From an uncultured Candidatus Rokubacteria bacterium (GTDB taxonomy: Bacteria > Methylomirabilota > Methylomirabilia > Rokubacteriales > DASRDR01), in contig CAVPSB010000029.1 in NCBI GenBank assembly GCA_963708025.1, positions 73,411 to 137,410 of the forward strand: 64,000 nt of DNA. The letters are read 5' to 3'. Made by a program: the position numbers and the translations under genes. Numbering within the stretch: the stretch's first letter is position 1; each line of letters begins with the position of its first letter. This document shows, in pieces, positions 18,749-33,334 of this stretch. The notes below the pieces were generated by a model that did not search any database, had not been told where the DNA came from, and saw only the letters and a program-made list of their open reading frames with translations.

Positions 18749-19126
18749 GTGATGGAGAGAAACACGGTCCGTGGGACGAACCTCACCGGAAGACCCCCGT
18801 CATGGAAGACGCTGGCCGGCGGACTGTGTGGCGGGCTGAGTGGCATCGCCGCCCTCCCCATCAGCGCGTGGGCGCAGGAGCGCCCGTGGGGCTGGGGCTG
18901 GCATCCGATGTGGGGGGTATGGGGAGCGTGGGGCGTCGGCATGATGCTGTTCATGCTTGCGTTCTGGGTCCTGGTGATCGTGGGCGTGGTGCTGGGGATC
19001 CGTTGGCTGGCGACCCAGGGACGCGAGTCGCGAGCTGACACCGCGCTGGAGATCCTGCGGCAGCGCTACGCGCGGGGCGAGATCAACAAGGAGGAGTTCG
19101 AGGCCAAGAAGCGGGATCTGAGCTGA
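18749..19126 (+). CDS. SHOCT domain membrane protein
   Basis: Trp/Gly/Met-rich linker, TM helix, ALEILRQRYARGEINKEEFEAKKRDL. Confidence 0.9.
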   Translation: MMERNTVRGTNLTGRPPSWKTLAGGLCGGLSGIAALPISAWAQERPWGWGWHPMWGVWGAWGVGMMLFMLAFWVLVIVGVVLGIRWLATQGRESRADTALEILRQRYARGEINKEEFEAKKRDLS

Positions 19127-19187
19127 TCGGTCTCCGAGGGTCGGTGCACCAGGCGGGGTATGTGGCCAGGTAGGCAGCGCCCCGTCG

Positions 19188-19227
19188 GTGGGGCACCGCC
19201 GCCCCACCTGCTGTTCGGATGCCCCAC
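19188..19227 (+). promoter_or_regulatory. Tandem palindromic upstream activator site
   Basis: GTGGGGC-ACCGCC-GCCCCAC followed by a second GCCCCAC 20 bp later; same motif at 29658-29696. Confidence 0.65.
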
Positions 19228-19323
19228 TCCCCGCCCTGACCGGGTGCCGGGGCGTCGGTGATCCCCTCCGCCTCGTCAATGCTGGAGGACAGTTGGCGGG
19301 CCCTTACCGACGCGGGTCCGATC

Positions 19324-19339
19324 TGGCAAGCACTTTGCT
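19324..19339 (+). promoter_or_regulatory. sigma54 (-24/-12) promoter
   Basis: TGGCAAG-CACT-TTGCT; same arms as 29562-29577. Confidence 0.8.
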
Positions 19340-19381
19340 CGAACCATGATCGACATGCGTTTCGGACGAGGTGCTCCAGCC

Positions 19382-19606
19382 ATGCGCGCCGCGGGGTTCA
19401 TTGCCCTGCTCCTCATCGCGGCCTCGATCCCCTGCCTTGTCCATGCCGATTCCGGTGACTCCGATGATCTCTGCCTCAGCTTCGGCCCGCTCGTCGGGCC
19501 GATCGCGGTGCCCCTCCTTCTCCCGGCCGGTGACTCTCACGCGGCTCCCGTGACCGTTCACCAGGCCGTGCCGGTCAACCTGCCCGTTCCCCCGCCCGAG
19601 GCCTGA
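19382..19606 (+). CDS. Small leader protein L1 (signal/TM, C-x12-C, terminal LPVPPPEA)
   Basis: GAGGTG RBS; paralogous to 29304-29543; first ORF after the sigma54 promoter. Confidence 0.7.
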   Translation: MRAAGFIALLLIAASIPCLVHADSGDSDDLCLSFGPLVGPIAVPLLLPAGDSHAAPVTVHQAVPVNLPVPPPEA

Positions 19607-19723
19607 CGCCCCCGGACCCGCGCGCTCGAACGCGCGGGTGAACCGACTCGAACGACACAGGCCGGCGCCGCGCCGCGCGCCGCCGGCCATCCGAGGGCCA
19701 TCTCGGGCGCAAAGGGGGCGCTG

Positions 19724-20665
19724 GTGTTCGATCACCATGAAGTCCGCCCGGCTCGCCGACCGGCCGCACGGCCGGTCCGGACGACGGGTCGGGGTCTGCT
19801 CGTCGCGGTGGCGACGCTCGCCGTCCTGGGCACCGCCGGGGCGGGGGCGCAGACGCCGCCTCACGGGATGCCGGGGTCGCTGCCGGGCCCCGGCGCGGAG
19901 ATGGCCCACGACCGGCCCTTCTACCGGGAGGGGACGTTCCACGCGCTCGTCGGCGCCGTCCTGATCGGCGGCGCCCTCGTCGCCTACCGGTTCCTACGTT
20001 CCCGGCCGCGCTGGCGTGCCAGGCCGGCCGGGTTCGTGAGCGAGGCCGTCCTGGCGGTCAACCTCATGGACTCCACCCACCTGGCGACGCACTACGGCGA
20101 GGCGGTGGCCCTGCGTGCGCGGAATGCCCTGGAGGAACAGGTTCGCCGCCTGACCGAGGCGACGCGCGCGTTCCTCGAGACGACCGGCGACGGCTGCCTC
20201 GTGACGTTCCCGGCCGTGACGCCCGCGCTCGAGTCGGCCGTCGCGCTCGTCCGGGAGCGGCACGAGGGGCCGACCGACCTGGGGCCGGCAGGCCGGCTCG
20301 AGGTCCGGGTCGGCGTGACGTACGGCGAGATCCTCCTCGACGCGCGCGGTGTCCGCCATGGCACCGCCATCAACAAGGCCTATCGGCTCCTCAGCGTGAA
20401 GGCCAAGGATCTCGTCGAGCTGAAGGGCGACGCCGAGGGGACGGCGCTGTCCGAGCGGACCCGGATCCTGGTCGATGAGGACGCGGCGCAGGAGGTGGGC
20501 CGCACCGTGGGACTCGGGTTCGTCGGTTACGCCCGGCTGAGGGGCTTCACCGGCCTCCACGGTCTGTACGAGGCGAGATGGCGGGCTGGCACCCAGCCGA
20601 CCCCGCCCGCCGGCGCCGCGGACCCGCAGGGCCGGGCCTCCGGCCCGCACGGAGGCATCCTGTGA
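19724..20665 (+). CDS. Membrane-anchored class III nucleotidyl cyclase-like protein
   Basis: Two hydrophobic segments, then AVLAVNLMDST, TGDGCLVTF, VRVGVTYGE, GTAINKAYRL, LRGF motifs. Confidence 0.8.
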   Translation: MFDHHEVRPARRPAARPVRTTGRGLLVAVATLAVLGTAGAGAQTPPHGMPGSLPGPGAEMAHDRPFYREGTFHALVGAVLIGGALVAYRFLRSRPRWRARPAGFVSEAVLAVNLMDSTHLATHYGEAVALRARNALEEQVRRLTEATRAFLETTGDGCLVTFPAVTPALESAVALVRERHEGPTDLGPAGRLEVRVGVTYGEILLDARGVRHGTAINKAYRLLSVKAKDLVELKGDAEGTALSERTRILVDEDAAQEVGRTVGLGFVGYARLRGFTGLHGLYEARWRAGTQPTPPAGAADPQGRASGPHGGIL

Positions 20666-23600
20666 GCGACACGCATCGGGGACGGATGGACAGCCCGCCC
20701 GCCGGCCGCGGCAACATCAGCCGCTGGTCCATCGAGCATCCCTACGCGATCATCGCCTTCTACCTCGGCGTGGCGCTGCTCTCCCTGCTGGTGGTCGTCG
20801 TCCAGATGCCGCGGCGCATGATGCCCTACGTCGAGAGTCCGCTGGTCGGCGTCGTCTCGATGATGCCGGGGCTCTCCGCCGAGGAGATGGAGATCTACTT
20901 CTCCAAGCCCATCGAGGAGCGGATGGTGGACCTCAAGAACGTCCACTTCGTCCGCTCGACCTCCCAGGAGGGGTTCTCGATCGTCACCGTGGAGTTCTGG
21001 TACGGCACCGACATGAGGAAGGCGCTGTTCGACGTCCAGTCGCTGATGAACGTCGTCCAGGCCGACCTCCCCATGACGGGGGCGAACCTCAAGCCGTCGT
21101 GGGTCCTGGCGATCGACCCCCTGAACATCCCGGTCCTGTCGCTGGCCGTCACCGGGGAGGGCTACGAGCCCGTGCAGCTCCGCACGCTGGTCGAGAACGA
21201 GGTGGTCAACCGCCTGAAGGTCGTCAAGGACGTCTACTCGGTGGTGCCGTTCGGCGGGCAGAAGCTCCAGATGCAGGTGCTCGTCGACCGCGAGCGGCTC
21301 GCGGCCTACCGGATGTCGCTCCCCGACCTCAAGCGCATGCTCGACATGCAGAACCAGTCCCGGCCGGCGGGGACGCTCACGTTCCAGGACCGCGAGATCC
21401 TGGTCCGGACCGACGCCCGCGCCCGCGCTCCCGAGCAGGTCGCCGCCTACCCGATCGGCAGCATGGAGGGCCGGACCGTCTACCTGCGAGACGTCGCGGA
21501 GGTCGTGAACGGCCCCCGCGAGCAACGCAGCCTCTACCGCTTCAACGGGAAGGAGGCCATCGAGATCTCGGTCGTCCAGCAGCCGGACGCCAGCTCGGTG
21601 CGGGTGATCGAGGGCGTCAAGGCCAAGCTCGCGGAGATCCAGCGTGACTTCCCCGGGCTCCGGTTCGAGGTGGCCTACGACAACGCCACGTTCGTCGGCT
21701 ATCTCATGCGGAACATGGTCGAGGAGCTGGTGGTGGCGGTGCTCCTCACCGGGCTGGTGGTCCTCGTCTTCCTGGGGAACGTCCGGGGCACGCTCATCTC
21801 GGTCGTGACCATTCCGATCTCGCTCGGCATGGCCCTGCTGGCGATGGTGCCCTTCGGCATGACGCTGAACAGCTCGACCCTCATCGGGCTCCTGCTCTCG
21901 ATCGGGCGGCTGGTGGACGACTCGATCATCGACCTCCACTCGATCGAGCGCCACCTGCGGATGGGGAAGTCGCCGAAGGACGCCGCGGTGGACGGGATCA
22001 CCGAGGTCCGGCTGGCCGTCCTGGCCATCACGCTCATGGTCTGCGTGGCGCTCCTGCCCCTGGCCTTCTCGGGCGGCATCGTGCAGTACATGTTCGAGGG
22101 GATCGTCTGGCCGATCGTCTTCGCCCTGCTCGCGTCGGCCGTGGTCTCGTTCACCCTGACCCCGCTCCTGGCCGCGCACCTCTTCGGCCCGCACGGCGAC
22201 GGGACGCGGGCATCGCGGCTCCAGCGCTGGGTGCTCGACCCCTCGCAGCGGCTCCTGGACCGGCTCGAGACCCGCTACCGCGGGGGCCTCGGGTGGGCGC
22301 TCCGCAATCGCTTCCTGGTGCTGGCCGGCGCGGTCGCGACGATCCTGGTCGGGGTCGCGCTCTACCCGCGGATCGGCAGCGAGATGATGCCGCTGGCCGA
22401 CGTCTCCCAGGCGTACGCGCTGCTGGAGGCGGCGCCGGGGACCTCGTTCGCCCGGACGTCCGACATCGCGGCCGAGGTGGAGCGCCTGCTCCTCCGGCAG
22501 CCGGAGGTGGTCAAGGTCTCCTCGGAGGTCGGCTTCGAGCCGGGCGGCACCTACTTCACCGGCTACAGCATGGGGGCCGTCAATGCCGCCGGCCTGATGA
22601 TCACCCTCACGGACTCCTCGAAGCGCCGGCGCGACATCTGGCAGGTGATCGACGCGGTGCGGGACGAGGCCGTCCGGACGATCCCGGGGATCCGGCGCCT
22701 GGCCATCAAGGAGATGGGCGCCGACGTCATGGCGTCGAGCGCCGCGCCCATCCAGGTCATCGTCTACGGCCCCGAGCTCGAGAAGCTGCACGAGCTCGGG
22801 GAGCAGGCGCGCCAGCTCGCCGAGCAGATCCCGGGCTTCTCCCAGGTGTCGACCTCGTGGGCCCACACCCTGCCCCAGCTCCACGTCGTGGTGGACCGCG
22901 CCCGCGCCCAGGAGATCGGCCTCTCCGTGGAGGAGGTGGCCGACCAGGCCTACTACGCGCTCAAGGGCGGGCTCACCAACGAGTTCTACCGGCTGGACAA
23001 CAAGCGCCTGTTCACGATCCTGCTCCGCTATCGCGGGGACCAGCGGCGCGACTCGAGCGACCTCCAGCAGGTCAAGATCGTGGGCAAGAACGGCGAGGTG
23101 GTGCCCCTGGCCTCGGTCGCCCGCGTCGAGGAGCGTCCCGGGGCGACGCTGATCGAGCACGACAACTTCCGCCGGGTCGTCAGCGTGCTCGGGTTCTATC
23201 GCAAGGGCGGCCCGCCGAGCATGGAGCTGTCGATGGACCTGCTCATGGCGGCCCACGGGAAGCTCGACTTCCCGCCGGGCTACGGCATGGAGCTGCGGGG
23301 CGACATGACCCAGATGGAAGAGTCGTTCGCGCGGCTGCTCCGCGGCCTCTACCTGGCGGTGATCTTCATGTTCCTGCTGCTCGTGGCCCAGTTCCGGAGC
23401 CTGATCGAGCCGCTGAACATGGTCTTCTCGCTCTCGCTCATGCTCACCGCGATCGTGGCCGGCCTGCTGCTGAACCGGCAGACCTTCTCCACCGTCTCCA
23501 TCCTGGCGGTGGTGATCCTGGCCGGCATGATGATGACGGTCGCGGTGCTGCTGATCGACCTCGTGCTCAAGCTGCGGGCCCAGGGCCTGCCGCGCGACGA

Positions 23601-23886
23601 GGCGATCCTGACGGCCGGGCCCATCCGGCTCCGGCCGATCCTGATGACGTCCCTCATCACCGTCGTCGTGCTGATCCCGGTCGCGCTCTTCCCGCGGACC
23701 GGGATCGACGCCTACGCGCCGCTGGCGACCGTGGTGATCGCCGGCCTCTCGGTGGGGACCGTGCTGGCCCTGTTCGTCGTCCCGGTGGTCCACACCTACA
23801 CGGACGACCTCGCCCGGCTCACGGCGGCCGCGTGGCGGCGCCTCACCGGGCGGCGCCCCGCCCGCCCGGAGAAGGTGTCGACGTGA
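20662..23886 (+). CDS. RND efflux permease (AcrB/CusA/CzcA superfamily)
   Basis: GTGA overlap with the cyclase stop and GGAGG RBS; PG.SAEEME, VDD in TM4, VSFTLTP, RLRPILMTS. Confidence 0.95.
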   Translation: MSDTHRGRMDSPPAGRGNISRWSIEHPYAIIAFYLGVALLSLLVVVVQMPRRMMPYVESPLVGVVSMMPGLSAEEMEIYFSKPIEERMVDLKNVHFVRSTSQEGFSIVTVEFWYGTDMRKALFDVQSLMNVVQADLPMTGANLKPSWVLAIDPLNIPVLSLAVTGEGYEPVQLRTLVENEVVNRLKVVKDVYSVVPFGGQKLQMQVLVDRERLAAYRMSLPDLKRMLDMQNQSRPAGTLTFQDREILVRTDARARAPEQVAAYPIGSMEGRTVYLRDVAEVVNGPREQRSLYRFNGKEAIEISVVQQPDASSVRVIEGVKAKLAEIQRDFPGLRFEVAYDNATFVGYLMRNMVEELVVAVLLTGLVVLVFLGNVRGTLISVVTIPISLGMALLAMVPFGMTLNSSTLIGLLLSIGRLVDDSIIDLHSIERHLRMGKSPKDAAVDGITEVRLAVLAITLMVCVALLPLAFSGGIVQYMFEGIVWPIVFALLASAVVSFTLTPLLAAHLFGPHGDGTRASRLQRWVLDPSQRLLDRLETRYRGGLGWALRNRFLVLAGAVATILVGVALYPRIGSEMMPLADVSQAYALLEAAPGTSFARTSDIAAEVERLLLRQPEVVKVSSEVGFEPGGTYFTGYSMGAVNAAGLMITLTDSSKRRRDIWQVIDAVRDEAVRTIPGIRRLAIKEMGADVMASSAAPIQVIVYGPELEKLHELGEQARQLAEQIPGFSQVSTSWAHTLPQLHVVVDRARAQEIGLSVEEVADQAYYALKGGLTNEFYRLDNKRLFTILLRYRGDQRRDSSDLQQVKIVGKNGEVVPLASVARVEERPGATLIEHDNFRRVVSVLGFYRKGGPPSMELSMDLLMAAHGKLDFPPGYGMELRGDMTQMEESFARLLRGLYLAVIFMFLLLVAQFRSLIEPLNMVFSLSLMLTAIVAGLLLNRQTFSTVSILAVVILAGMMMTVAVLLIDLVLKLRAQGLPRDEAILTAGPIRLRPILMTSLITVVVLIPVALFPRTGIDAYAPLATVVIAGLSVGTVLALFVVPVVHTYTDDLARLTAAAWRRLTGRRPARPEKVST

Positions 23887-23977
23887 GCCTCCGGGCACGG
23901 TCCGCGGCGGCGATCCAGGGAAGCCCAGCGCCAGAGCCTGGCGCGCAACCCATCGTCGAGCTGGCAGGGAGGACGCG

Positions 23978-25492
23978 ATGAACATCGACGGCGTGGACCG
24001 GGACGATCTGCGGACGCCCGGATCCGACGGCGAGCACGCGGTCGTGGGCCGGCGCGCCCGCGGGCGGGGACCCGTTCGGCGCACCGTTGCGGTCCTGGTG
24101 GGCCTCGCGCTCGTCGCGGCGGCAGGCGCGTGGGCGTACTACGCGAACATGGCCGCCGGCCGGCCGGCGATGGACATGACGATGCCGGTGAGCGGCGGCG
24201 CGGCGGCCTTCCCGGTCGTGCTGACCCCGGTCGAGCGCGGGCCGATCACCGGCACCGTGACGTACACGGGGAGCGTGGCGGCCTTCAACGAGGAAGAGAT
24301 CTACCCCCGCGTGACCGGACGGATCGTCGAGATGGCGGTCTATCCCGGGGACGCCGTCCGGGCGGGGCAGGTGGTCGCCCGGCTCGATGACGTGGAGTTG
24401 AGCTCCCGGGCGCGGGAGGCGGCCGCCAGCGCGACGGCGGCGGAGGCCAACCTGGCCCAGATGGAGGCCGACGTCCTGGCGGCCGGGCACGGCGTCACCC
24501 AGATGGACCGCGAGCTCGCGATGGTCGAGGCGGAGGTCGAGTACCAGGAGCAGCTCGCCGCCCGGGAGGAGCGGCTGTTCCGCGTGGGAGCGGTCTCCCG
24601 CCAGGACGTCGAGAGCGCTCGCGCCATGGTCGCCGCCGCCCGGGCCAAGGTCGCGGCGGCCCGGGCGCGGGCCGAGCAGGCCAAGGCGATGGAGGTGAGC
24701 GCTCTCCGCAAGCGGGACGCGATGACGGCCATGGCGAGCATGAGCCGGGCCCAGCTCCGCACGGCGGAGGTCGTGCGCGACTACGTGACCATCGTGGCGC
24801 CGAGCGCCGGCTACGTCGTGAAGCGCCTGGTGGCCCCGGGCGTCCTCGTCCAGCCCGGGATGGCCATTCTGAAGATCGCCCAGCTCGACCGCGTGCGCCT
24901 GCAGGCGAACGTCGGAGAGAAAGACGTCGGGTCGATCCGGGTCGGGGCGCCGGTGACGGTCACGTCGACCGACGGCCGGCCGCCCGTGGCCACGGGCGTG
25001 ACCGCGGTCTTCCCCTTCGTCAACCAGGGCCCGCGGACCGCGGTGGTGGAGGCGCTCGTGGACAACGCGGGCCGCCGGTTCCTGCCGGGCCAGTACGTGA
25101 CCATGCAGTTCGTGACCGGGGAGCGCCCGGAGGCCCTCAGCGTGCCGCGCGGGGCGGTCGCCCGGATGGGCGGCAAGGCCCGCGTGTGGGTCGTGGCCGA
25201 CGGGCGGGCCGAGCCGCGGGAGGTGACGACGGGCCTCGAGACCCCGGAGCGGGTGGAGATCGCGGGAGGCCTTCGCGGGGACGAGCGGGTCGTCGCGCGC
25301 GGCCACGAGGGCCTCTACGCCGGGGCCCGGGTCAGCGACGTGGCGAAAGGCGCCGCGGCAGCCGGCGGGGCCGGCGCACCGGTCACTCCCTCGCATGGCG
25401 GGGCGGGGGCCGGAGCCGCGCACGGCGGCCGCCGGCACCGGCGCCATCCGCCACGCCCCCTCAGCCAGCTGGTCAACCAAAGGAGGCGCCCC
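23978..25492 (+). CDS. RND periplasmic adaptor (MFP); no stop before tolC in this assembly
   Basis: TM anchor, PRVTGRI..V.PGDAVRAGQVVARLD, IVAPSAGYV, LPGQYV, VPRGAV, V.TGL, GL.GDERVV. Confidence 0.88.
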
Positions 25493-26856
25493 ATGGCACC
25501 ACGCACTGAGCGGATGGTGAGACGGTGGACGCGTGTGGCGGCAGGGTCGATCCTCGGCCTGCTCGCCGCTGGATCCGTGGCGGCGCAAGGGTTGCCGCCG
25601 CTCCCCCGGGTGGACGCGCCGCTGACGATGGAGCAGGCCGTGGACCTGGCGCTCCAGAAGAGCCTGCGCGTCCGGGCGGCCCAGGCCGACTCCCGCACGA
25701 TGGAGTCGATGCGCCGGGAGGCCCAGGCGCCGTTCTGGCCGCAGCTCTCCGCCAACGGCTACGCGAACGACCAGAACCTCGCCCCCAACGTCTACTCGTC
25801 CGCCGGCACGACGATGGCCCGGAATACCCAGGTCTTCCTGGCCGACCAGACGGGGGACGCGAACCTGACCGCGATGTATTCGCTCTTCTCGGGCGGGCGG
25901 GACTACTACGGCTACAAGGCGGCCGCCGCCCGGGCCGACGCCTCCCGCCAGATGCTCCGCGGCGCCGAGATCGACGTCGCCATGCAGGCCCGGCTGGACT
26001 ACATCGCGGCCCTGCGCGAGGCGGAGAATGTCGGCGTCACCGGCGACCTCGTCCGCCAGGTCGAGGAGCGGCTCCGGGTGACCCGCGAGGCGTTCGACGC
26101 CGGCCGGGTGCCGCGATACTACGTGCTCCGCGACGAGGCCGAGCTGGCGAACACCGTCCAGATGGACGCCATGGCCCGGAGCCGGGCCGGCCAGGCGCTG
26201 ATCGCCCTGAAGACCACGCTCGGGATCGACCTCGCCTCCACCATCGCGCTCGCCGACCGACTCGCCTACACGCCGGTCCCGGTGTCGGTGGAGGAGGCGA
26301 TCCGCGGCGCCAGCGACGCGCATCCCGAGGTGCGGGCGGCCTCCAAGCAGCGGCAGGCGGCGGAAGCCGACGTGCGGGCGGCCTACGGCAACTACTTCCC
26401 GCAGGTGAGCGTGGCCGCCATGTACGACTGGGTCAAGACGAAGACCAGCGGGTCGAACGACTCCGACCAGGGCTACTCGGTCGGCCTCGTCGTCACCCTG
26501 CCGATCTTCGACGGCTTCATGCGCGAGAACGCCGTCCGGACGGCCAAGGCCAAGCTCGACCGGACGCTCCAGGCCGAGGGGCTCGCCCGCCAGCAGATCG
26601 CGAAGGAGGTGTCCCAGGCCGCGCTGATGCTCGCCGCGGCCGAGAAGAGCGTGGAGGCGAGCGGTAAGGGACTCGAGCAGGCCGAGGAGGAGGCCCGGAT
26701 CGTGCAGGAGCGCTTCGCCGCCGGGCGGGGCATCCAGCTCGAGATCCTGGACGCGCAGGCGAGCCGGACGCGCGCCCGCTTCAACGCGGTCGCCGCGCTG
26801 CCGAGTACCAGACGGCGCTCGCCATGTGGCGCCGCGCCATCGGCGAGATCCGATGA
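25493..26856 (+). CDS. TolC-family outer membrane efflux protein, frameshift near 26801
   Basis: Own AAGGAGG RBS and signal peptide; LTMEQAVDLAL, FPQVSV, LPIFDG, LEILDAQ; corrected tail AEYQTALAMWRRAIGEIR*. Confidence 0.88.
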
Positions 26857-26910
26857 GCCGAGCAATCGGCCGAGCGAAGGAGGCCGGTGGCACATGAGAG
26901 GAGAAGGCAA

Positions 26911-27237
26911 ATGAAACGGACGGGTGCAAGTCTGATCGGCGCAGGGGCCATGGTGCTGGCACTCGTCGCTGGCGCGGCGTGGGCCGAGACCAAGATCACC
27001 GTCACGCGCGAGGAGAGCAAACCCCAGAAGGTCGAGGTCAAGGTTGGGGAGGAGGTGCGCTGGGTGAATGCCTCCGGCGGCACCGCCCACATCGCGTTCG
27101 GCGGCGTCGATGGCGTCCAGTTCTACCTCGGCAAGGAGGGACGCGTGAAGTTCGACAAGCCGGGAACGTACGACTACACCGTGCACATCTCGGGCATCAA
27201 GGCGCATGCCCACACCGGAGCTGTCGTCGTGAAGTAG
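26911..27237 (+). CDS. Small exported cupredoxin-fold protein
   Basis: Signal peptide; P..VEVKVGEEVRWVN....H, FDKPGTYDY, G.VVVK; GGAGAAGG RBS. Confidence 0.8.
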   Translation: MKRTGASLIGAGAMVLALVAGAAWAETKITVTREESKPQKVEVKVGEEVRWVNASGGTAHIAFGGVDGVQFYLGKEGRVKFDKPGTYDYTVHISGIKAHAHTGAVVVK

Positions 27238-27261
27238 GGACTCCGGGACCGGGCCGTCCAA

Positions 27262-27345
27262 CGGCCTTCCCAATCGAACGCCGGGTCGACCACGGCGGCC
27301 TTGGGTACGAGACCGGCGTCGTCCCGATCGTCGCGGGAGAGGTTC
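27262..27345 (-). pseudogene. Short glgX (glycogen debranching enzyme)-like remnant
   Basis: NLSRDDRDDAGLVPKAAVVDPAFDWEG resembles the GlgX segment D.RDSA..VPK.VVVDP.FDW.GD. Confidence 0.5.
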
Positions 27346-27406
27346 CCCGGGACGACCGGAACGTCTCCATGGCGACCCTCCTCACCTGCCAATCCAAATT
27401 CGCGGG

Positions 27407-28360
27407 TCATGGTCTGATGTCCCGTTCAAACGAGCGGACCAGGGCCCAGACTCGCTCGGGCTCCCGGAGCAGCACCTGGTGATCGGCCCCGGGTAATGCG
27501 ACGAAGCGGGCGTTCGGGCGGGTGGCGGCCAGCGCCCGGGCCGCCGCGAGCGGCGCGACCTGGTCATCCTGCCCGTGGATGAACAGCACGGGTGTCGCCA
27601 CCGTGCGCATCAGAGCCGTGGCATCGGTGCCGAGGATCGTCTCGTGGAGCGTGCCGGAGAGAGAGCCCCAGGTGTGGCGCATCGAGTCGGTGTAGACGTC
27701 CTCGGGCAGGCCGACCCACGCGGCCAGCCAGGGCCAGGCGTAGAGCGCCCGGAGGTAGTGGGCGACGCGCAGCGACGGACTGCCGGCGAGCATCTGGCGA
27801 AACAGCCAGGACCGGCGGCCGAGCCGGGCCAGGGCGTCGGCCTCGTCCCGATAGAGGGGGAGCCCGATGAGGACGGCGCCCTGGAACCACGCCGGGCGGC
27901 GACTGACCAGGCCCAGCGCTACGACCGCGCCCAGCGAGTGCCCGACCAGCCAGCCGTCCCCCCGGTCGAACCCACGCTGCCGCAGAAGGTGCTCGAGGGC
28001 CGCGAGGTGGTCGTCGAGGCCATACCGGGCGCGGGGCTTCGGCGACTCGCCGAAGCCCAGGAGATCGGGGATGAGCAAGGTGTGGTCGCCGAGCAGCGGG
28101 GCGACCCGATCGACCCAGTAGCGCCCCGAGCCGGCCAGGCCGTGCACGAGGACCATGCGTCGCGGCCCCTGGCCGACCTCGACCGCACGAAGCTCGGTCG
28201 CGGTCGGGTCGAACGGCGGCGCCGTGGCCTCCTGCCAGTAGTTCCACGCCCCGAAACCCGCGAGCGCGGCCACCGCGAGGCCGAGCGCGATCAGGCCCCG
28301 GCGGAGGGCCGTCCACCGCCGGGCGGTGACGGACGTCGGCCGCGGGACGAGAGGCATCAT
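27407..28360 (-). CDS. Membrane-anchored alpha/beta hydrolase
   Basis: LVHGLAGS, PDLLGFGES, GHSLG nucleophile, IHGQDDQV, ADH. Confidence 0.9.
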   Translation of the reverse strand: MMPLVPRPTSVTARRWTALRRGLIALGLAVAALAGFGAWNYWQEATAPPFDPTATELRAVEVGQGPRRMVLVHGLAGSGRYWVDRVAPLLGDHTLLIPDLLGFGESPKPRARYGLDDHLAALEHLLRQRGFDRGDGWLVGHSLGAVVALGLVSRRPAWFQGAVLIGLPLYRDEADALARLGRRSWLFRQMLAGSPSLRVAHYLRALYAWPWLAAWVGLPEDVYTDSMRHTWGSLSGTLHETILGTDATALMRTVATPVLFIHGQDDQVAPLAAARALAATRPNARFVALPGADHQVLLREPERVWALVRSFERDIRP

Positions 28361-28583
28361 GCGAGCTGGCGGCGGAGTCGCCAGAGCCCGAGCCCGAAGA
28401 TCGCGAACCCGAGGGTCGCCATGGCCAGCGCCTGGGACCAGAACGCCGTCAGGCCGGCGCCCTTGTGAGGAAGATGAGGATCCCGGCGTCCGGAGCCGGC
28501 CGCCCGAGCCAGAGCCACGCGGCGACTCCGGCGCCGGCCAGGGCCACCACGGCCGCGGCCGGCGCCCACCGTCTCGTCGTCAC
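28357..28583 (-). pseudogene. Deletion scar: N-terminus of an HlyD-type adaptor joined to the C-terminus of an ABC-2 permease
   Basis: MTTRRWAPAAAVVALAGAGVAAWLWLGRPAPDAGIL joined to IFL/KGAGLTAFWSQALAMATLG.AIFGLGLWRLRRQLA*. Confidence 0.65.
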
Positions 28584-28599
28584 GGGTTTCCCGGCCTTC

Positions 28600-28977
28600 C
28601 TACGGCTTCTGCGCGCCCATCATCTCGGTCATCCGCTTCTGCATGTCCGCCATGCGCTCCCGCATCTTCGGCATGTCGGACATCATGCCCGGCCCCATCC
28701 CCTTGCCGGTGGATGCCATGCCTCCCATCATCGTGCCCATCTCCTTCATCATCTCGCCCATCTGCTTCATCTGCTCCGGGGACATCTGGCCCCGCGCCAT
28801 CCGGTCGCCCATCTGCTCCATCAGCCCGCTCATCTGCTGCATCATCCCGGTCATCTGCGGGTGCATGCCCATCATGCCGGGGCCCATCGCGCCGCCGGGA
28901 GGTGGCGCGGGCTGCTGAGCGAGTGAGGTGGCCACGCCGAGGAACACGACTCCGAGAATCGCCATCGCCGTCTTCAC
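28600..28977 (-). CDS. Exported methionine-rich putative Cu(I)/Ag(I)-binding protein
   Basis: GGAGG RBS + GTG, signal peptide, about 30 Met in about 95 mature residues. Confidence 0.8.
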   Translation of the reverse strand: MKTAMAILGVVFLGVATSLAQQPAPPPGGAMGPGMMGMHPQMTGMMQQMSGLMEQMGDRMARGQMSPEQMKQMGEMMKEMGTMMGGMASTGKGMGPGMMSDMPKMRERMADMQKRMTEMMGAQKP

Positions 28978-29050
28978 GGTTGCCTCCATGGACGAGTGAT
29001 GCCGCGCCTGGTTCGTCGAGCGCAGCCCCTCGCCGGGCCGGGTCGTTGTT

Positions 29051-29197
29051 TCACGCCTTCACGTACTGCGCGGGCGCCTTCTCGAACTTGGCCTTGCAGG
29101 CGCCCGAGCAGAAGTAGTAGGTCTGCCCCTGGTGGGTGGCCGTCGCGGCCGCGGCCTTTTCGTCGACGGCCATCCCGCACACCGGATCCCTCGTCAT
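29051..29197 (-). CDS. YHS/TRASH domain metal-binding protein
   Basis: MTRDPVCGM.VD...TYYFCS..CK..F...PAQY; AAGGAGG RBS. Confidence 0.92.
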   Translation of the reverse strand: MTRDPVCGMAVDEKAAAATATHQGQTYYFCSGACKAKFEKAPAQYVKA

Positions 29198-29303
29198 GAT
29201 CGAACCTCCTTCCAATCGTCGGTCGAGCGCCCCACGTGAAGAGTCTCCTCTCCCGATGGTGATTCCCGTGGGCCCTCTGGTCTGAGGGCGATCGAGGCCG
29301 GGG

Positions 29304-29543
29304 TCAGGCCTTGGGAGGCGGAGCGGGCAGATCGAGGCTGAACAGGGGAGTGGCGCCGGGCGGCTCGAGCGCAACCATTCCCACCAGGCCACGGGGAGGG
29401 CCGAGATCGGGGGCGCGCGTGACGGCCACGACGACCAGGCACAGGTCCTCACCCGCCGACTCGGATCCGTCGAGGAGACACGTACCGAGGACCAGAAGCA
29501 GGGTCACCGCGAAGAGGGCAGTCAGCCGGGTCATCGCGTGCAT
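29304..29543 (-). CDS. Small leader protein L2 (signal/TM, C-x12-C, terminal LPAPPPKA)
   Basis: Paralog of 19382-19606; start at ATG 29543 or 29534 directly after the sigma54 promoter. Confidence 0.7.
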   Translation of the reverse strand: MHAMTRLTALFAVTLLLVLGTCLLDGSESAGEDLCLVVVAVTRAPDLGPPRGLVGMVALEPPGATPLFSLDLPAPPPKA

Positions 29544-29561
29544 CGCTCCGGTCAACGGCGA

Positions 29562-29577
29562 AGCAACCGGCTTGCCA
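29562..29577 (-). promoter_or_regulatory. sigma54 (-24/-12) promoter
   Basis: TGGCAAG-CCGG-TTGCT on the minus strand. Confidence 0.8.
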
Positions 29578-29657
29578 GCCTCGACGTGTCGGATCGCAAG
29601 CTCACGGGTCTTCAGCGGTTCTCCGGCACCGGCCGCTGAGCCGCGGCCTGGACACGC

Positions 29658-29696
29658 GTGGGGCGCCGGCTCACCACTGGGGCGACCGCGCCCCAC
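29658..29696 (-). promoter_or_regulatory. Tandem palindromic upstream activator site
   Basis: Minus strand GTGGGGC-GCGGTC-GCCCCAG then GTGGTGA-GCCGGC-GCCCCAC, 80-120 bp upstream of the sigma54 site. Confidence 0.65.
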
Positions 29697-29710
29697 CGGG
29701 CGACCCCGCG

Positions 29711-30232
29711 TCAATGGTGCTGCTCGTGGCCGCCCTGAGCGCCGCCCCCGCCCGGGGGCCGGAGGGCACGCAGGAAGGCAACGAGATCGATCACCTCCTG
29801 AACGGTGACCGAGTCGTTATAGGACGGCATCTTCGAGGAGCCATCCGGCGCCTCGTAGCCCTTGCCCCGCTCGATCACCGCGCTCGGGTTGATGATCGCC
29901 TCCGCGAAGTATTCCGGCTCGTGGAGCGGCCCCATCATGGACAGCTCCGGCCCCACCTTGTCCGGCTCACTCGGCACCGGGAATGGGTTCCCCCGCACCT
30001 CGTGGCAGCTGTAGCACTCGAGCTTCTCGAACAGCGCGCGTCCCTTGGCGGGATCTCCCTTCGGCCAGGCGAACCGCCAGCCGGCCGGCGTGCCGTGCTC
30101 ACCTTGGCCCTGACCCGGGACCGAGGGCGTCGACGACCCCTGACCCTGATTGGCGGGTGCGAGCCAGGTCGCCGAGAGGAGGCTCACGATGCCGACCGCG
30201 ACCAGGAGCGGGAATGTCCGTCTGCGTTGCAT
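29711..30232 (-). CDS. Monoheme c-type cytochrome
   Basis: Signal peptide, GDPAKGRALF, CYSCH, GPELS, SKMPSYN, His-rich tail HEQHH. Confidence 0.9.
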   Translation of the reverse strand: MQRRRTFPLLVAVGIVSLLSATWLAPANQGQGSSTPSVPGQGQGEHGTPAGWRFAWPKGDPAKGRALFEKLECYSCHEVRGNPFPVPSEPDKVGPELSMMGPLHEPEYFAEAIINPSAVIERGKGYEAPDGSSKMPSYNDSVTVQEVIDLVAFLRALRPPGGGGAQGGHEQHH

Positions 30233-30774: not shown

Positions 30775-30837
30775 TTGACACCCCGGCGGAGCTCGGCTAT
30801 CGTCGAGGCTGTCGTTGTTAGGAACGATTCTCATTAC
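30775..30837 (+). promoter_or_regulatory. sigma70 promoter plus Fur/PerR-type box
   Basis: TTGACA-17 bp-TATCGT (30775-30803), then AT-rich GTTAGGAACGATTCTCATTAC (30817-30837) resembling a Fur-family operator. Confidence 0.7.
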
Positions 30838-30862
30838 CAACCAGGATGGAGCCGAATTCCCG

Positions 30863-31372
30863 GTGAGAGGCAATCCCGGTCGTACCGCCGCCCGGCCCGC
30901 TCCCGAGCCGCGCGCGGACGCCACGCTCCGGACGGACCTCGCCCGCCGCGGGATGCGGCTGACGGATCAGCGCCGGCTGATCCTGACCGCCGTCCAGGCG
31001 ACCGACTCGCATCCGACCGCGGAGTGGGTGCACGAGGCGGTCCGGAGACGGCTGCCGCGGGTCAGCCTGGCGACGGTGTACCGCAACCTGCGTCTCCTCG
31101 CGCGCCACGGCTTGCTGACCGAGATCCAGAACGGGCCCAGCATCCGCTTCGACGCGCGGGTCCACCGGCACCACCACTTCACCTGCGCCGCCTGCCGGCG
31201 CATCTTCGACCTGGACGAGCCTGTCGATGCCCGGCTGGAAGCCCGCGTGGCGGCGCGGACCGGCTTTCGTGTCTCGCACCACCGCATCGAGTTCTTCGGC
31301 CTGTGCGACGGGTGCACGTCCCGACGGGCGCGGCGACCGCCACGCGGCCGGGACGCGTCCGTGGTCCGGTAG
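30863..31372 (+). CDS. Fur-family repressor, probably PerR-like (start uncertain)
   Basis: RLTDQR..IL, HPTAE.V, SLATVYRNL, HHHFTCAAC, FFGLCDGC; heads the rubrerythrin operon. Confidence 0.9.
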   Translation: MRGNPGRTAARPAPEPRADATLRTDLARRGMRLTDQRRLILTAVQATDSHPTAEWVHEAVRRRLPRVSLATVYRNLRLLARHGLLTEIQNGPSIRFDARVHRHHHFTCAACRRIFDLDEPVDARLEARVAARTGFRVSHHRIEFFGLCDGCTSRRARRPPRGRDASVVR

Positions 31373-31394
31373 TCCAACAACGAGGAGGGTCGTC

Positions 31395-31841
31395 ATGGCG
31401 AAGGCACTCAAGGGCACCAAGAGTCACACCAATCTCAAGGAGGCGTTCGCGGGCGAGTCCCAGGCGAACCGGCGCTACCTCTACTTCGCGCGGGTCGCGG
31501 ACATCGAGGGGTTCCCCGACATGGGCGGCCTCTTCCGGGACACCGCGGAGGCGGAGACGGGCCACGCGTTCGGCCACCTCGACTTCCTCAAGGAAGTCGG
31601 GGACCCGGTGACCGATGTGGCATTCGGTCGGACCGAGCAGAACCTCAAGTCGGCCATCGAAGGCGAGACGTACGAATACACCCAGATGTACCCCGGCATG
31701 GCCAAGACCGCGCGCGAGGAAGGCCTCGCCGAGCTGGCCGAGTGGTTCGAGACGCTGGCCAAGGCGGAGAAGTCGCACGCCGGGCGCTTCAACAAGGGTC
31801 TCCAGGCGATCGCCGGCCGCGAGCCGGCCGACGCGATCTGA
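31395..31841 (+). CDS. Rubrerythrin (short form without rubredoxin domain)
   Basis: NLKEAFAGESQANRRYLYFA, ETGHAFGH, GETYEYTQMYP, AEKSHA. Confidence 0.95.
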   Translation: MAKALKGTKSHTNLKEAFAGESQANRRYLYFARVADIEGFPDMGGLFRDTAEAETGHAFGHLDFLKEVGDPVTDVAFGRTEQNLKSAIEGETYEYTQMYPGMAKTAREEGLAELAEWFETLAKAEKSHAGRFNKGLQAIAGREPADAI

Positions 31842-31846
31842 GAAGA

Positions 31847-31990
31847 TTCGGGGGGGTCTCGGAAGACCCCCCCGATGCCGCGCCCTCGGAGGCGAAGCGG
31901 AACGCCAGGGCCGCGTGGCGGAAGCCAGAGGGTTGCGGGAAGCCGACCGGGGGTGGGAAGGGGAGCCGCCGGCATCGGTTCACAGACTCT
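31847..31990 (+). repeat. Structured intergenic repeat family A, copy 2
   Basis: CGGGGGGGTC-TCGGAA-GACCCCCCCG hairpin then GGCCGCGTGG..GAGGGTTGCG.GAAGCCGA..GGCAT.GGTTCA shared with copy 1. Confidence 0.8.
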
Positions 31991-32059
31991 CAGAGCGGGC
32001 GGCGCCGCGGAGCCACGCGAGACGAGGTCCCGCGGTGGTTGCGGGGCGGAGAAGCACGC

Positions 32060-33334
32060 ATGAGCGCGTTCGACATCCGGGCTCCCGAGTTCTGGAGCCA
32101 GCCCGCGCTCGATACCGAGCTGCGGCGCGTCTTCGACATCTGCCACGGCTGCCGCCGCTGCCTGCCTCTCTGTCCTTCCTTCAAGGACCTGATGCGCTCG
32201 CTGGACCGGGACGAGGTCAACGGTGAGGTCGATCGACTCCCGGCCCCCGACATGCAGCGGGTGGTGGACCTCTGTTACCAGTGCAAGCTCTGCTACAACC
32301 ACTGCCCGTACACGCCACCCCACCGCTGGGCGATCGACTTTCCCCGCGTGATGCTGCGGGCCCGGGCCGTCGCCGCCCGGGAGCGGGGCGGCGTCACGCT
32401 CCAGGATCGGATGCTCGGCAACACGGAGCTGATCGGACGCGTGGGTGGCGCCACCGCCCCGCTGTCCAACTGGGCGAACACGAACCCGGCCAACCGCGCG
32501 CTCATGCAGGCGACCGTCGGCATCCACAAGGACCGGAACCTGCCGCCGTTCAACCGCCAGTCCTTCAGCCGCTGGTTTGCGGCGCACCCGGCGACCTCGG
32601 CCGCGCCGGCGGCCGCCCGGGTGGCCCTCTTTGCCACGTGCCCCGTCGAGTACCACTATCCGGCGGTGGGGCGGGCGGCGGTCGCGGTGCTGCGGCACAA
32701 CCGGGTGGACGTGACCCTGCCGGCCCAGCGCTGCTGCGGGATGCCCTACCTCGACGGCGGGGCGGTGGACGAGGCGCGTCGGCTGATCGACGAGAACGTG
32801 CGGAGCCTGGGCGCCGTGGCGCGCGAAGGGCGCGAGGTCGTGGTGCCGGGCCCCACCTGCTCGTACATGATGAAGCAGGAGTGGCCACTCCTGGCCACCG
32901 ATCGGGAGACGGCCCGGGTGGTGGCCGACCACACCCGGGATCTCTTCGAGTACCTGGCCCGGCTCCACGCCGGCGGGAGGCTCGACACCGCGTTCCCGAG
33001 CCGGCCCGGCAGGGTCGCCTACCAGATCCCGTGTCACCTCCGGGCCCAGAACATGGGGACCAAGTCCGCCGACGTGCTGCGCCTGACGGGAGCCCAGGTG
33101 ACCGTGATCGAGCGATGCTCGGCCGTCGACGGGACCTGGGGGTTCAAGCGCGAGTACTACGAGCTGTCGATGAAGGTGGCCGAGCCCCTGTTTCGCGACG
33201 TCGAGGCGGTCCAGCCGGACCGGACGGCGAGCGACTGCCCGCTGGCCGGTCTCCAGGTCGTGCAGGGGACCGGCCGGCGGGTCCAGCACCCCATCGAGAT
33301 CATGGCCGAAGCTTACGGCCTGTCCACGGAGTGA
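32060..33334 (+). CDS. Fe-S oxidoreductase (GlpC/HdrD-like, rubrerythrin-associated)
   Basis: CHGCRRC..LCPSF, CYQCKLCY.HCPY.PPH, CCGMP, PCHLR, CSAVDGTWG, SDCPLA. Confidence 0.92.
   Translation: MSAFDIRAPEFWSQPALDTELRRVFDICHGCRRCLPLCPSFKDLMRSLDRDEVNGEVDRLPAPDMQRVVDLCYQCKLCYNHCPYTPPHRWAIDFPRVMLRARAVAARERGGVTLQDRMLGNTELIGRVGGATAPLSNWANTNPANRALMQATVGIHKDRNLPPFNRQSFSRWFAAHPATSAAPAAARVALFATCPVEYHYPAVGRAAVAVLRHNRVDVTLPAQRCCGMPYLDGGAVDEARRLIDENVRSLGAVAREGREVVVPGPTCSYMMKQEWPLLATDRETARVVADHTRDLFEYLARLHAGGRLDTAFPSRPGRVAYQIPCHLRAQNMGTKSADVLRLTGAQVTVIERCSAVDGTWGFKREYYELSMKVAEPLFRDVEAVQPDRTASDCPLAGLQVVQGTGRRVQHPIEIMAEAYGLSTE

Follow-up and report, generated by a model that had tools for sequence, protein, structure and literature searches.

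Small open reading frames with a near-fixed Cys-to-PPP spacing behind sigma54-type promoters in Rokubacteria: a narrow sequence family and candidate metal-sensing arrest leaders

What does it mean that two loci about 10 kb apart, on opposite strands of one contig, are headed by the same arrangement of enhancer, promoter, small open reading frame (ORF) and spacer? The question was raised by a stretch of 64,000 nucleotides (nt) from an uncultured Candidatus Rokubacteria bacterium (contig CAVPSB010000029.1, positions 73,411 to 137,410; G000:C29:73411-137410), the whole of which we call the window; its source genome, G000, comprises 8.17 Mb in 49 contigs at 71% GC. A preliminary description of the window had proposed that the small ORFs of the two loci, L1 and L2, form a family of metal-sensing arrest leaders, an interpretation that is partly supported, with most of the comparative tests suggested there favouring it. 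We found every listed element of the shared architecture in place (Table 1), and comparative evidence rules out chance. The cassette recurs in relatives, with conservation at the protein level, a nearly fixed distance between the second Cys and a Pro-Pro-Pro (PPP) motif, and operon contexts rich in metal and envelope genes. The best explanation for each locus is a portable cassette of NtrC-type enhancer, sigma54 promoter, leader ORF and structured spacer.

Within the window, the two promoters, which had been described as TGGCAAG-N4-TTGCT, are the only matches to TGGCA-N6-TTGCT (0.05 expected; two matches were reached in 1 of 100 shuffles), and both fit the canonical TGGC-N7-TTGC spacing of sigma54 sites. 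Transcription of L1 would be expected to start near 19349, and G000 encodes both sigma54 (rpoN) and EF-P. Tandem enhancer sites had been described at both loci; L2 does have two, although imperfect, whereas L1 has one and a half rather than two full sites, because its second element is a half-site only. The enhancer starts about 100-136 nt before the promoter at the two loci, with the L1 sigma54 site beginning 136 nt downstream of the L1 enhancer start. Three matches to the palindrome GTGGGGC-N6-GCCCCAC were counted where 1.17 were expected, and at least as many occurred in 11 of 100 shuffles, so that the count is not significant when judged within the 64-kb window alone.

The two small ORFs have the proposed hydrophobic N-terminus, C-x12-C motif and PPP ending, with sizes of 76-83 amino acids (aa) rather than 74-79. 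Both end in PPP-E/K-A-stop, the PPP being the fifth to third residues from the end, and the second Cys precedes it by 39 residues in L1 and 40 in L2. For L1, the start at 19355 matches that retained by the orthologues P0003, P0005 and P0006, and L1 has a VHA-D site. The two peptides share only 18 of 56 residues (32%; E = 0.054), a weak likeness apart from the C-x12-C motif and the PPP-x-A tail that both retain. Across the whole of G000, 13 ORF tails match the pattern [LIVMF]P.PPP..-stop, and L1 and L2 alone add a hydrophobic N-terminus and the Cys pair.

A chance likeness, or a gene-calling artefact of a GC-rich genome full of spurious ORFs, would fit several of these figures: the proteins match at E = 0.054 only, the palindrome count in the window is not significant, and the GC content at third codon positions of the ORFs (GC3, 0.77-0.80) is below that of typical genes. 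This explanation, to which we attach a negligible probability, is refuted by homologues in 46 of 251 genomes and in 192 metagenome clusters, all of which have that architecture together with its promoter and enhancer. Relaxing the cut-off to E <= 10 or E <= 1 gave no Pfam or NCBIfam match for either peptide. Five close metagenome proteins came from a word-indexed search with L1; phmmer, run exhaustively with L2 on 1.84 billion representatives, returned 9 at E <= 1e-3, and six-frame searches of relatives uncovered diverged copies. A profile of 19 sequences (A3) identified the family in those 46 genomes, belonging to 32 of the 68 genera of the class (Rokubacteria/Methylomirabilota), and in 19 of its 104 high-quality genomes; one of the genomes searched (G038) is unpublished, and no claim depends on it. 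The 192 clusters were obtained at E <= 1e-3 with a profile of 50 sequences (A6) against 5.8 billion proteins, and among the best 120 of the 192 none has a Pfam domain and the sole name is 'hypothetical protein'. A degenerate DNA pattern retrieved five loci from metagenome-assembled genomes of Candidatus Rokubacteria/Rokuibacteriota, with the labels Gemmatimonadetes and 'uncultured bacterium' occurring once each. The profile search that the preliminary description had called for returned conserved homologues, and the family is real but narrow. Contigs from RNA libraries match at 94-96% identity over 29304-29520 (X18; L2 ORF) and 19396-19584 (X20; L1 ORF); these metatranscriptomic contigs, possibly carried-over DNA, are a weak hint that the leaders are transcribed in relatives, one that extends neither to the ends nor to the levels of any transcript.

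The six-frame searches yielded 44 family ORFs of 74-112 aa, with heuristic start codons, whose members are mutually related, so that counts over them are not independent. In 41 of the 44 a basic N-terminus is followed by a hydrophobic stretch; most members have no clear cleavage or lipobox site, and the segment may be an uncleaved anchor. Its helix ends in the first invariant Cys, usually as C-L-F/L-D, and an Asp/His/Gly-rich loop of 8-19 residues then ends in D-L-C, which holds the second. The C-x12-C motif proposed for the family consequently describes L1 and L2, while the loop varies from x8 to x19 across the family. The first Cys was considered as a lipoprotein Cys and rejected by eye, the preceding residue often being L, F, I or P. 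After the second Cys come about 19 moderately hydrophobic residues, a nearly invariant Gly, about 19 poorly conserved residues and the C-terminus (D)-L-P-x-P-P-P-K/R, beyond which near relatives have 2 residues and distant members 3-16. Kyte-Doolittle means over 17 residues are 2.1-3.1 for the first hydrophobic segment and 1.2-2.9 for the second. In the family alignment C19, C32 and PPP are invariant and G52 and D30 nearly so. AlphaFold2, run on a 50-sequence alignment, predicted helices at residues 2-21 and 29-40 and a low-confidence coil thereafter (mean predicted local distance difference test score, pLDDT, 66.8), with no confident fold for the Cys-to-PPP linker (pLDDT 50-66).

PPP is present in 42 of the 44 ORFs, 2-11 residues from the end, and is written with 15 different codon triplets across these 42 members; the ratio of nonsynonymous to synonymous substitution rates (dN/dS) is 0.32-0.65 in the five pairs examined. 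Together, the varied PPP codons and the dN/dS values indicate that selection acts at the protein level. For the middle Pro, 28 of the 42 members use CCT, a codon that accounts for 3% of Pro codons among confident genes of G000; PPP is written CCG CCT CCC in L2 (29313-29321) and CCC CCG CCC in L1 (19589-19597). The CCT bias could reflect a rare-codon slow-down or selection on CCUCC.

The distance between the second Cys and the first Pro of PPP is the strongest and, in our view, the most telling result of this comparison of sequences. Among 58 sequences (the 44 six-frame ORFs and 14 database proteins) it is 40 residues in 45, 39 in 9 and 41 in 2, the remaining 2 having no PPP; the members with 39 are the L1 clade and three that carry an added CxxxC. 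Among the best 120 of the 192 A6 hits, which were unseen when the pattern was first noticed, it is 40 in 117 and 39 in 3, a count that is somewhat biased because the profile that fetched them penalises insertions and deletions. In the same sequences the loop between the Cys residues ranges from x8 to x19, and all 120 of these best hits have PPP, with tails of 2-16 residues. The 39-residue linker has a mean pairwise identity of 22% despite its fixed length. This nearly invariant distance favours the proposal that linker length is kept.

How might such a spacing be read? In CutF, the chain from C69xxxC73 to P109EPEGPPPRL118-stop places 41 residues between the last Cys and PPP (excerpts of PMC8456105). 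Its nascent chain is targeted by Sec, its periplasmic CxxxC binds copper, and binding prolongs an EF-P-sensitive stall at PPP that opens a stem-loop over the cutO ribosome-binding site (excerpts of PMC9973294, bioRxiv 10.1101/2025.02.05.636593 and PMC8456105). Under a published rule, CutF-like proteins have <150 aa and a signal peptide, carry PP among their last 15 residues and have a gene on the same strand no more than 1000 nt away; 5,334 were reported, in 29 clusters with differing Cys/His motifs, the commonest neighbours being OEP, ACR_tran and HlyD_D23 genes (excerpts of PMC9973294). The present family has the size, the PP near the end and the spacer and neighbouring gene of this rule, and probably also the signal. 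Since it shares the CutF geometry as well, we consider it somewhat probable that the leader senses metal co-translationally through arrest, in the manner of CutF, and belongs to a sigma54 regulon.

For such a leader we infer targeting, metal binding, stalling and action in cis. The N-terminal hydrophobic segment would bring the translating ribosome to the Sec translocon, and the Asp/His-rich loop between the two Cys would be exposed on the periplasmic side. PPP, which is intrinsically slow and EF-P-dependent, would be reached exactly 40 residues past the second Cys. At that pause the second Cys would lie about 41 residues from the peptidyl-transferase centre, roughly the length of tunnel plus translocon for an extended chain, with the loop just presented to the periplasm. 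A ligand in the loop, whether a metal or a disulfide, would then set the dwell of the ribosome at PPP through its pull on the nascent chain, and the time spent at the 3' end of the leader would set expression of the downstream metal and envelope genes. The output could be control by the post-stop hairpin, attenuation or stability, or else Rho loading on a pyrimidine tract, as in CruR and TnaC. With transcription depending on activator and sigma54 and the leader depending on translation, there would thus be two layers of control. It is a more tentative possibility that the leaders constitute an unnamed transmembrane metal-sensing arrest-leader family defined by the 40-residue ruler from last Cys to PPP, in a geometry shared with the non-homologous CutF.

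We investigated the upstream and downstream context of the family. Allowing up to 2 mismatches but none in GG and GC, a sigma54-like site lies within 90 nt upstream of 42 of the 44 ORFs, against 1.5% of 5000 random G000 windows, and an exact TGGC-N7-TTGC upstream of 36 (0.24% of random windows). Further upstream, TGGGGC-N6-GCCCCA (<= 2 mismatches) was identified for 38 (2.7%). The first base of the promoter element is about 30-75 nt from the leader start codon, and the 5' untranslated region is therefore short. The leaders almost always stand first behind the same upstream activating sequence (UAS) and a sigma54-like site, the linkage that the preliminary description had asked about, in operons rich in metal and envelope genes.

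From our own ORF calls and Pfam searches of 134 ORFs, the leader is followed, for about 20 of the 42 family ORFs of relatives, by a secreted protein of 131-153 aa without a Pfam match, and then either by a kinase and an NtrC-type activator or by YHS, Met-rich, DUF5676 and resistance-nodulation-division (RND) genes. This secreted protein stands at a nearly constant 73-84 nt from the leader (L041:1830-2243, L043:1835-2248, L045:395-808), and in G000 it directly follows neither L1 nor L2. Seven leaders precede an HtrA-type protease and then RND, membrane-fusion protein (MFP) and OEP genes, 4-5 stand directly before an RND pump, and the remainder precede DUF5676, P-type ATPase or SHOCT genes. In the genomes with two copies (G000, G008 and G193), every copy heads its own operon. 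The relative G013 has a single operon of leader, 131-aa protein, YHS, Met-rich, DUF5676, cyclase-like and RND genes, whereas in G000 this unit is divided between two operons, with a separate enhancer, promoter and leader ahead of each half. A split unit with a cassette on each half favours a cis-acting cassette over a diffusible product.

At least nine loci have a kinase and/or an NtrC-type activator in the leader operon. In L039 and L041 the kinase has a membrane domain resembling ICMT/PEMT, and a periplasmic sensor domain could not be recognised in it. Activators from the leader operons of five relatives are nearly identical to one another at the C-terminal, DNA-binding end, which fits the conserved enhancer. 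Among 26 activator-like matches in G000 we identified none with the DNA-binding end of the relatives, the best being 41-45% identical (C18:603625-604947).

The enhancer serves more than the leaders. G000 contains 14 palindromes with <= 1 mismatch and 58 strict sigma54-like sites; in 8 cases a palindrome precedes such a site by 50-136 nt, and six of these enhancer-bearing promoters (L090, L092-L094, L096 and L098) lack a small ORF. They head genes for citrate synthase and a radical SAM protein; an Fer4_5 membrane protein and an EB_dh haem protein; a secreted protein without a Pfam match; a PEP-utilising enzyme; two Usp proteins; and small membrane proteins. Two further promoters with two half-sites each, upstream of Hsp20 and Usp genes and of an HbpS-like protein, also lack a small ORF. 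Taken together, the enhancer-bearing promoters of G000 suggest that one activator governs a general regulon for stress or energy. Because leaderless enhancer promoters exist, the enhancer is not restricted to metal genes, and metal and envelope operons carry the leader as an additional layer, which fits the proposed layering under a shared sigma54 enhancer.

These contexts bear on an explanation in which the ribosome has no regulatory part, and which we regard as unlikely. The small ORF would encode a trans-acting two-helix membrane protein with a periplasmic Cys/Asp/His metal loop, serving as a chaperone, a sponge or an accessory sensor for the co-operonic membrane kinase (after the logic of MgrB or ZraP), and its PPP-K/R tail would serve for interaction in the cytoplasm or as a positive-inside signal. 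The two hydrophobic segments with the Kyte-Doolittle means given above, the invariant or nearly invariant Cys pair and Gly, the kinase and/or activator genes at nine or more loci and dN/dS below 1 all fit this explanation, under which a post-stop hairpin could favour the yield of the first gene over later ones. It sits less easily with a linker that is fixed in length at only 22% identity, or with the low-confidence coil that AlphaFold places past residue 40. Moreover, each operon has its own leader copy in multi-copy genomes, neither copy in G000 adjoins a kinase or activator, and the ORF is missing at 6 of the 8 enhancer and sigma54 promoters of G000, those that do not head metal or envelope operons. 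CutF, with the same geometry, is described in excerpts of PMC9973294 as undetectable as a protein and acting only in cis.

The spacer between leader and next gene, described as about 110-120 nt, is 117 nt in L1 but 106 nt in L2, and is 63-163 nt in the 38 of 44 loci used in the pairing test described below; the Shine-Dalgarno (SD) and start calls of L057 and L058 fell within a hairpin, and these loci were set aside from that test. In L1, the SD AGGGGG at 19713-19717 precedes the GTG at 19724. A hairpin with a folding free energy of <= -10 kcal/mol occurs within 60 nt after the stop codon in 23 of the 44 loci, with a mean of -10.7 against -5.6 kcal/mol for shuffles in a per-locus scan; the stems have different sequences at a similar place and lack a T-run. 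The first 20 nt after the stop are 64.5% pyrimidine, compared with 49.2% after 3797 other genes, a value reached in 0 of 10000 resamples, and the tract is G-poor. When 18900-29900 was scanned for Rfam families, sigma70 promoters and terminators, neither leaders nor spacers contained a hit. Several spacers have an A-rich stretch with GAAC in it (for example AATCGAACCA), placed after the post-stop hairpin and before the next SD.

Could the act of translation alone matter, with ribosomes protecting the transcript or preventing premature termination and the Cys pair and PPP being incidental? The ORF starts near its promoter (the sigma54 site lies mostly 29-74 nt before the start codon), the post-stop tract is pyrimidine-rich and G-poor, and the hairpin has no T-run, with no intrinsic terminator predicted, all of which would suit this explanation. 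It leaves the invariant Cys pair, the PPP and the 40-residue spacing over about 180 sequences unexplained, together with the rare CCT at the middle Pro (28 of 42 against 3%), and we consider it highly improbable.

Several observations, besides the relatedness of the 44 members and the biased ruler count, weigh against a CutF-like arrest leader. The second hydrophobic segment and the conserved Gly could equally well come from a folded two-helix membrane protein, and few insertions or deletions inside a membrane segment are not unusual. Two of the 44 ORFs lack PPP, and the distance from PPP to the stop varies among distant members; in long-tailed members the distance from PPP or stop to the hairpin is likewise not conserved. 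No strong post-stop hairpin was found at 21 of the 44 loci, and where present it mostly starts 18-25 nt past the stop and leaves the SD outside, too far for a ribosome paused at PPP to melt most of the hairpins. MAFFT and RNAalifold on 18 spacers gave no consensus structure (0 pairs), because the hairpin arms were misaligned. In minimum-energy folds, the post-stop nucleotides pair with the next SD in L1 (CGCCCCC/GGGGGCG), L2 and about 12 relatives. Shielding of the SD by the first 16 nt after the stop is nevertheless not supported, with 2.98 expected pairs against 3.01 for the shuffled segment over 38 loci, indicating that the pairing is a compositional effect. Nor is a role of the PPP codons, often CCUCC, as an anti-SD element supported (1.93 against 1.71 for 64 synonymous recodings, 36 loci). 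Finally, DUF2946, which carries a central CxxC motif (excerpts of PMC8456105), had been suggested for comparison, and the family proved not to be a member; L1 and L2 have C-x12-C, and the family x8 to x19, in place of CxxC. Neither the DUF2946 model of Pfam (PF11162; cut-off 23.7 bits) nor those of its relatives match L1 or L2 at E <= 10, a six-frame search of G000 gave nothing above the cut-off, and the same search of the 251 genomes placed one genome above it, at a different locus.

Table 1. Coordinates of features at the two loci, in the rest of G000 and in relatives. Unprefixed positions refer to the window.
Feature	Position	Strand	Remarks
L1 enhancer (UAS)	19188-19227	+	perfect GTGGGGC-N6-GCCCCAC palindrome 19188-19207; half-site GCCCCAC 19221-19227
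L1 sigma54-type promoter	19324-19339	+	TGGCAAGCACTTTGCT; -24 GG, -12 GC
L1 small ORF	19355-19606	+	83 aa; start kept in orthologues; other in-frame ATGs 19346, 19382
L1 codons	Cys 19433-19435, 19472-19474; PPP 19589-19597; stop 19604-19606	+	
L1 spacer	19607-19723	+	117 nt; 9-bp hairpin 19616-19639; GC hairpin ~19660-19688
Membrane-anchored protein	19724-20665	+	313 aa; class III cyclase-like motifs by eye
RND permease (ACR_tran)	20578-23886	+	longest ORF; Pfam match starts at residue 47
MFP and outer-membrane factor	23978-26914	+	one 978-aa ORF
Cupredoxin-like secreted protein	26887-27237	+	116 aa; Pfam 20.3 bits vs cut-off 27
Alpha/beta hydrolase	27407-28360	-	317 aa; last L2-unit gene on that strand
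Met-rich secreted protein	28600-28989	-	129 aa; composition, signal peptide, homologues in leader operons of relatives
YHS-domain metal-binding protein	29051-29197	-	48 aa; solid Pfam match
L2 spacer	29198-29303	-	106 nt; 6-bp hairpin 29272-29289; SD GGAAGGAGG before ATG 29197
L2 small ORF	29543-29304	-	79 aa; 76 aa from ATG 29534
L2 codons	Cys 29478-29480, 29439-29441; PPP 29313-29321; stop 29304-29306	-	
L2 sigma54-type promoter	29577-29562	-	TGGCAAGCCGGTTGCT; pattern match
L2 enhancer	29696-29658	-	abutting palindromes 29696-29677 (1 mismatch) and 29677-29658 (2 mismatches)
Leaderless enhancer and strict sigma54 site	C2:279486-279591, C2:292131-292252, C2:346781-346867, C2:353479-353620, C16:116593-116677, C35:61967-62074		
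Leader-operon activators	L043:5054-6619, L056:3864-5330, L058:2238-3575, L061:187-1599, L063:4100-5638		
A-rich GAAC stretch	spacers of L002, L039, L041, L043, L049, L050, L057; window 19640-19660		

The gene lists given for the two loci in the preliminary description need several corrections. For L1, the RND, MFP and TolC functions stand, but MFP and TolC form one ORF, the cyclase has no Pfam match (its NCBIfam match is weak, E = 0.046) and the cupredoxin falls below the cut-off; a gene product of the G013 operon shares 47% identity with the cyclase-like protein. The RND pump scores 597 bits with multidrug models against 371 bits with CusA/CzcA, below both cut-offs, and on these scores it is not clearly of the heavy-metal type. 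An internal SD and an ATG with a signal peptide occur at residue 505 of the 978-aa ORF, and in the relatives L062 and L072 the MFP and the outer-membrane factor are two overlapping genes; the single ORF may have arisen by in-frame fusion, by loss of a stop or through faulty assembly. For L2, both the YHS and the Met-rich genes were recognised, the former by a solid match and the latter, which has no Pfam match, by its composition, signal peptide and homologues, including a counterpart of 60% identity in the G013 operon.

We additionally noted the surroundings of the two cassettes. DUF302 and SHOCT-domain proteins lie immediately upstream of L1 (18327-19126, +), and some relatives have SHOCT homologues within the leader operon itself (L048, L052 and L055). 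A c-type cytochrome gene (29711-30232, -) ends right at the L2 enhancer, and beyond it a Fur-family regulator, a rubrerythrin and a CCG/4Fe-4S protein (30815-33334, +) form a metal and oxidative-stress neighbourhood.

That the leader is an unnamed sequence family is well supported by the searches above. The claim of a new family accordingly holds at the sequence level, whereas a CutF-like class with varied Cys/His motifs upstream of RND genes has already been described (excerpts of PMC9973294). Among the matches listed in literature searches, none mentioned CutF-like proteins in connection with sigma54, Rokubacteria or Methylomirabilota, and those for CutF, DUF2946, Pro-rich sequences and copper were limited to Rhodobacter and Bordetella work and a review. 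Rokubacteria are not mentioned in three small supplementary files on CutF-like proteins, the list of 5,334 proteins itself lying outside this comparison.

If the arrest-leader reading is true, periplasmic metal sensing by a nascent chain extends beyond DUF2946 of Proteobacteria and Bacteroidota to an uncultured soil phylum, and about 190 clusters of 'hypothetical protein' are likely to be regulatory leaders rather than structural genes. If the family is indeed defined by its ruler, selection acts on how far the peptidyl-transferase centre lies from the periplasmic face of the translocon, a single physical rule under which such sensors emerged or persisted in distant phyla, and the cassette gives a broader stress regulon a second, operon-specific input. 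The near-invariant 40-residue spacing provides a sequence-independent signature with which further leaders of this kind could be sought. The family also puts names on a sigma54 regulon of Rokubacteria, a phylum whose physiology is known from genomes only.

How does the cassette compare with known systems? In ZraPSR-type systems, a two-component kinase and an NtrC-type activator drive sigma54 promoters for periplasmic stress or metal functions through palindromic enhancers, and ZraP is a folded periplasmic chaperone, not a PPP-ended leader. In the ESM Atlas, the nearest clusters are unnamed and from Rokuibacteriota, and the nearest named ones are labelled DUF2946 and CzcI at 0.88-0.90, which we treat as a lead only. 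SecM, MifM, VemP and the RAPP-motif peptides resemble the proposed leaders in an N-terminal targeting segment and a near-C-terminal arrest motif, with the duration of arrest set by force on the nascent chain; these systems monitor the export machinery and regulate Sec or YidC, whereas the family heads metal and envelope operons, and its motif is PPP in place of FxxxxWIxxxxGIRAGP or RAPP (excerpts of bioRxiv 10.1101/2025.02.05.636593).

CruR of Bordetella pertussis is likewise an upstream ORF with a Cys motif, a Pro-rich C-terminus and a copper gene downstream, and its output, Rho-dependent termination, would fit the pyrimidine-rich post-stop tract of the family (excerpts of PMC9426467). It belongs to Pfam DUF2946, has a CxxC motif and a dispensable signal peptide, and copper relieves its stalling (excerpts of PMC9426467). 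Compared with CutF of Rhodobacter capsulatus, the family shows no detectable sequence or hidden Markov model similarity, and C-x8-19-C with an Asp/His-rich loop takes the place of CxxxC, although a few members add a CxxxC that ends at the ruler Cys. It also differs in its second hydrophobic segment after the Cys, in a spacer hairpin that mostly excludes the SD, in being driven by sigma54 and an NtrC-type enhancer, and in its occurrence in Rokubacteria rather than in Pseudomonadota and Bacteroidota. Nonetheless, both are small, with an N-terminal export or anchor segment and a central Cys motif, and both stand first in their operon, with a short structured spacer before a metal gene. RND, MFP and OEP genes, which occur in operons of the family, are among the commonest neighbours of CutF-like genes, and in both a basic residue and one further residue separate PPP from the stop, with PPP standing 40 residues past the last Cys in the family and 41 in CutF, according to excerpts of the CutF literature.

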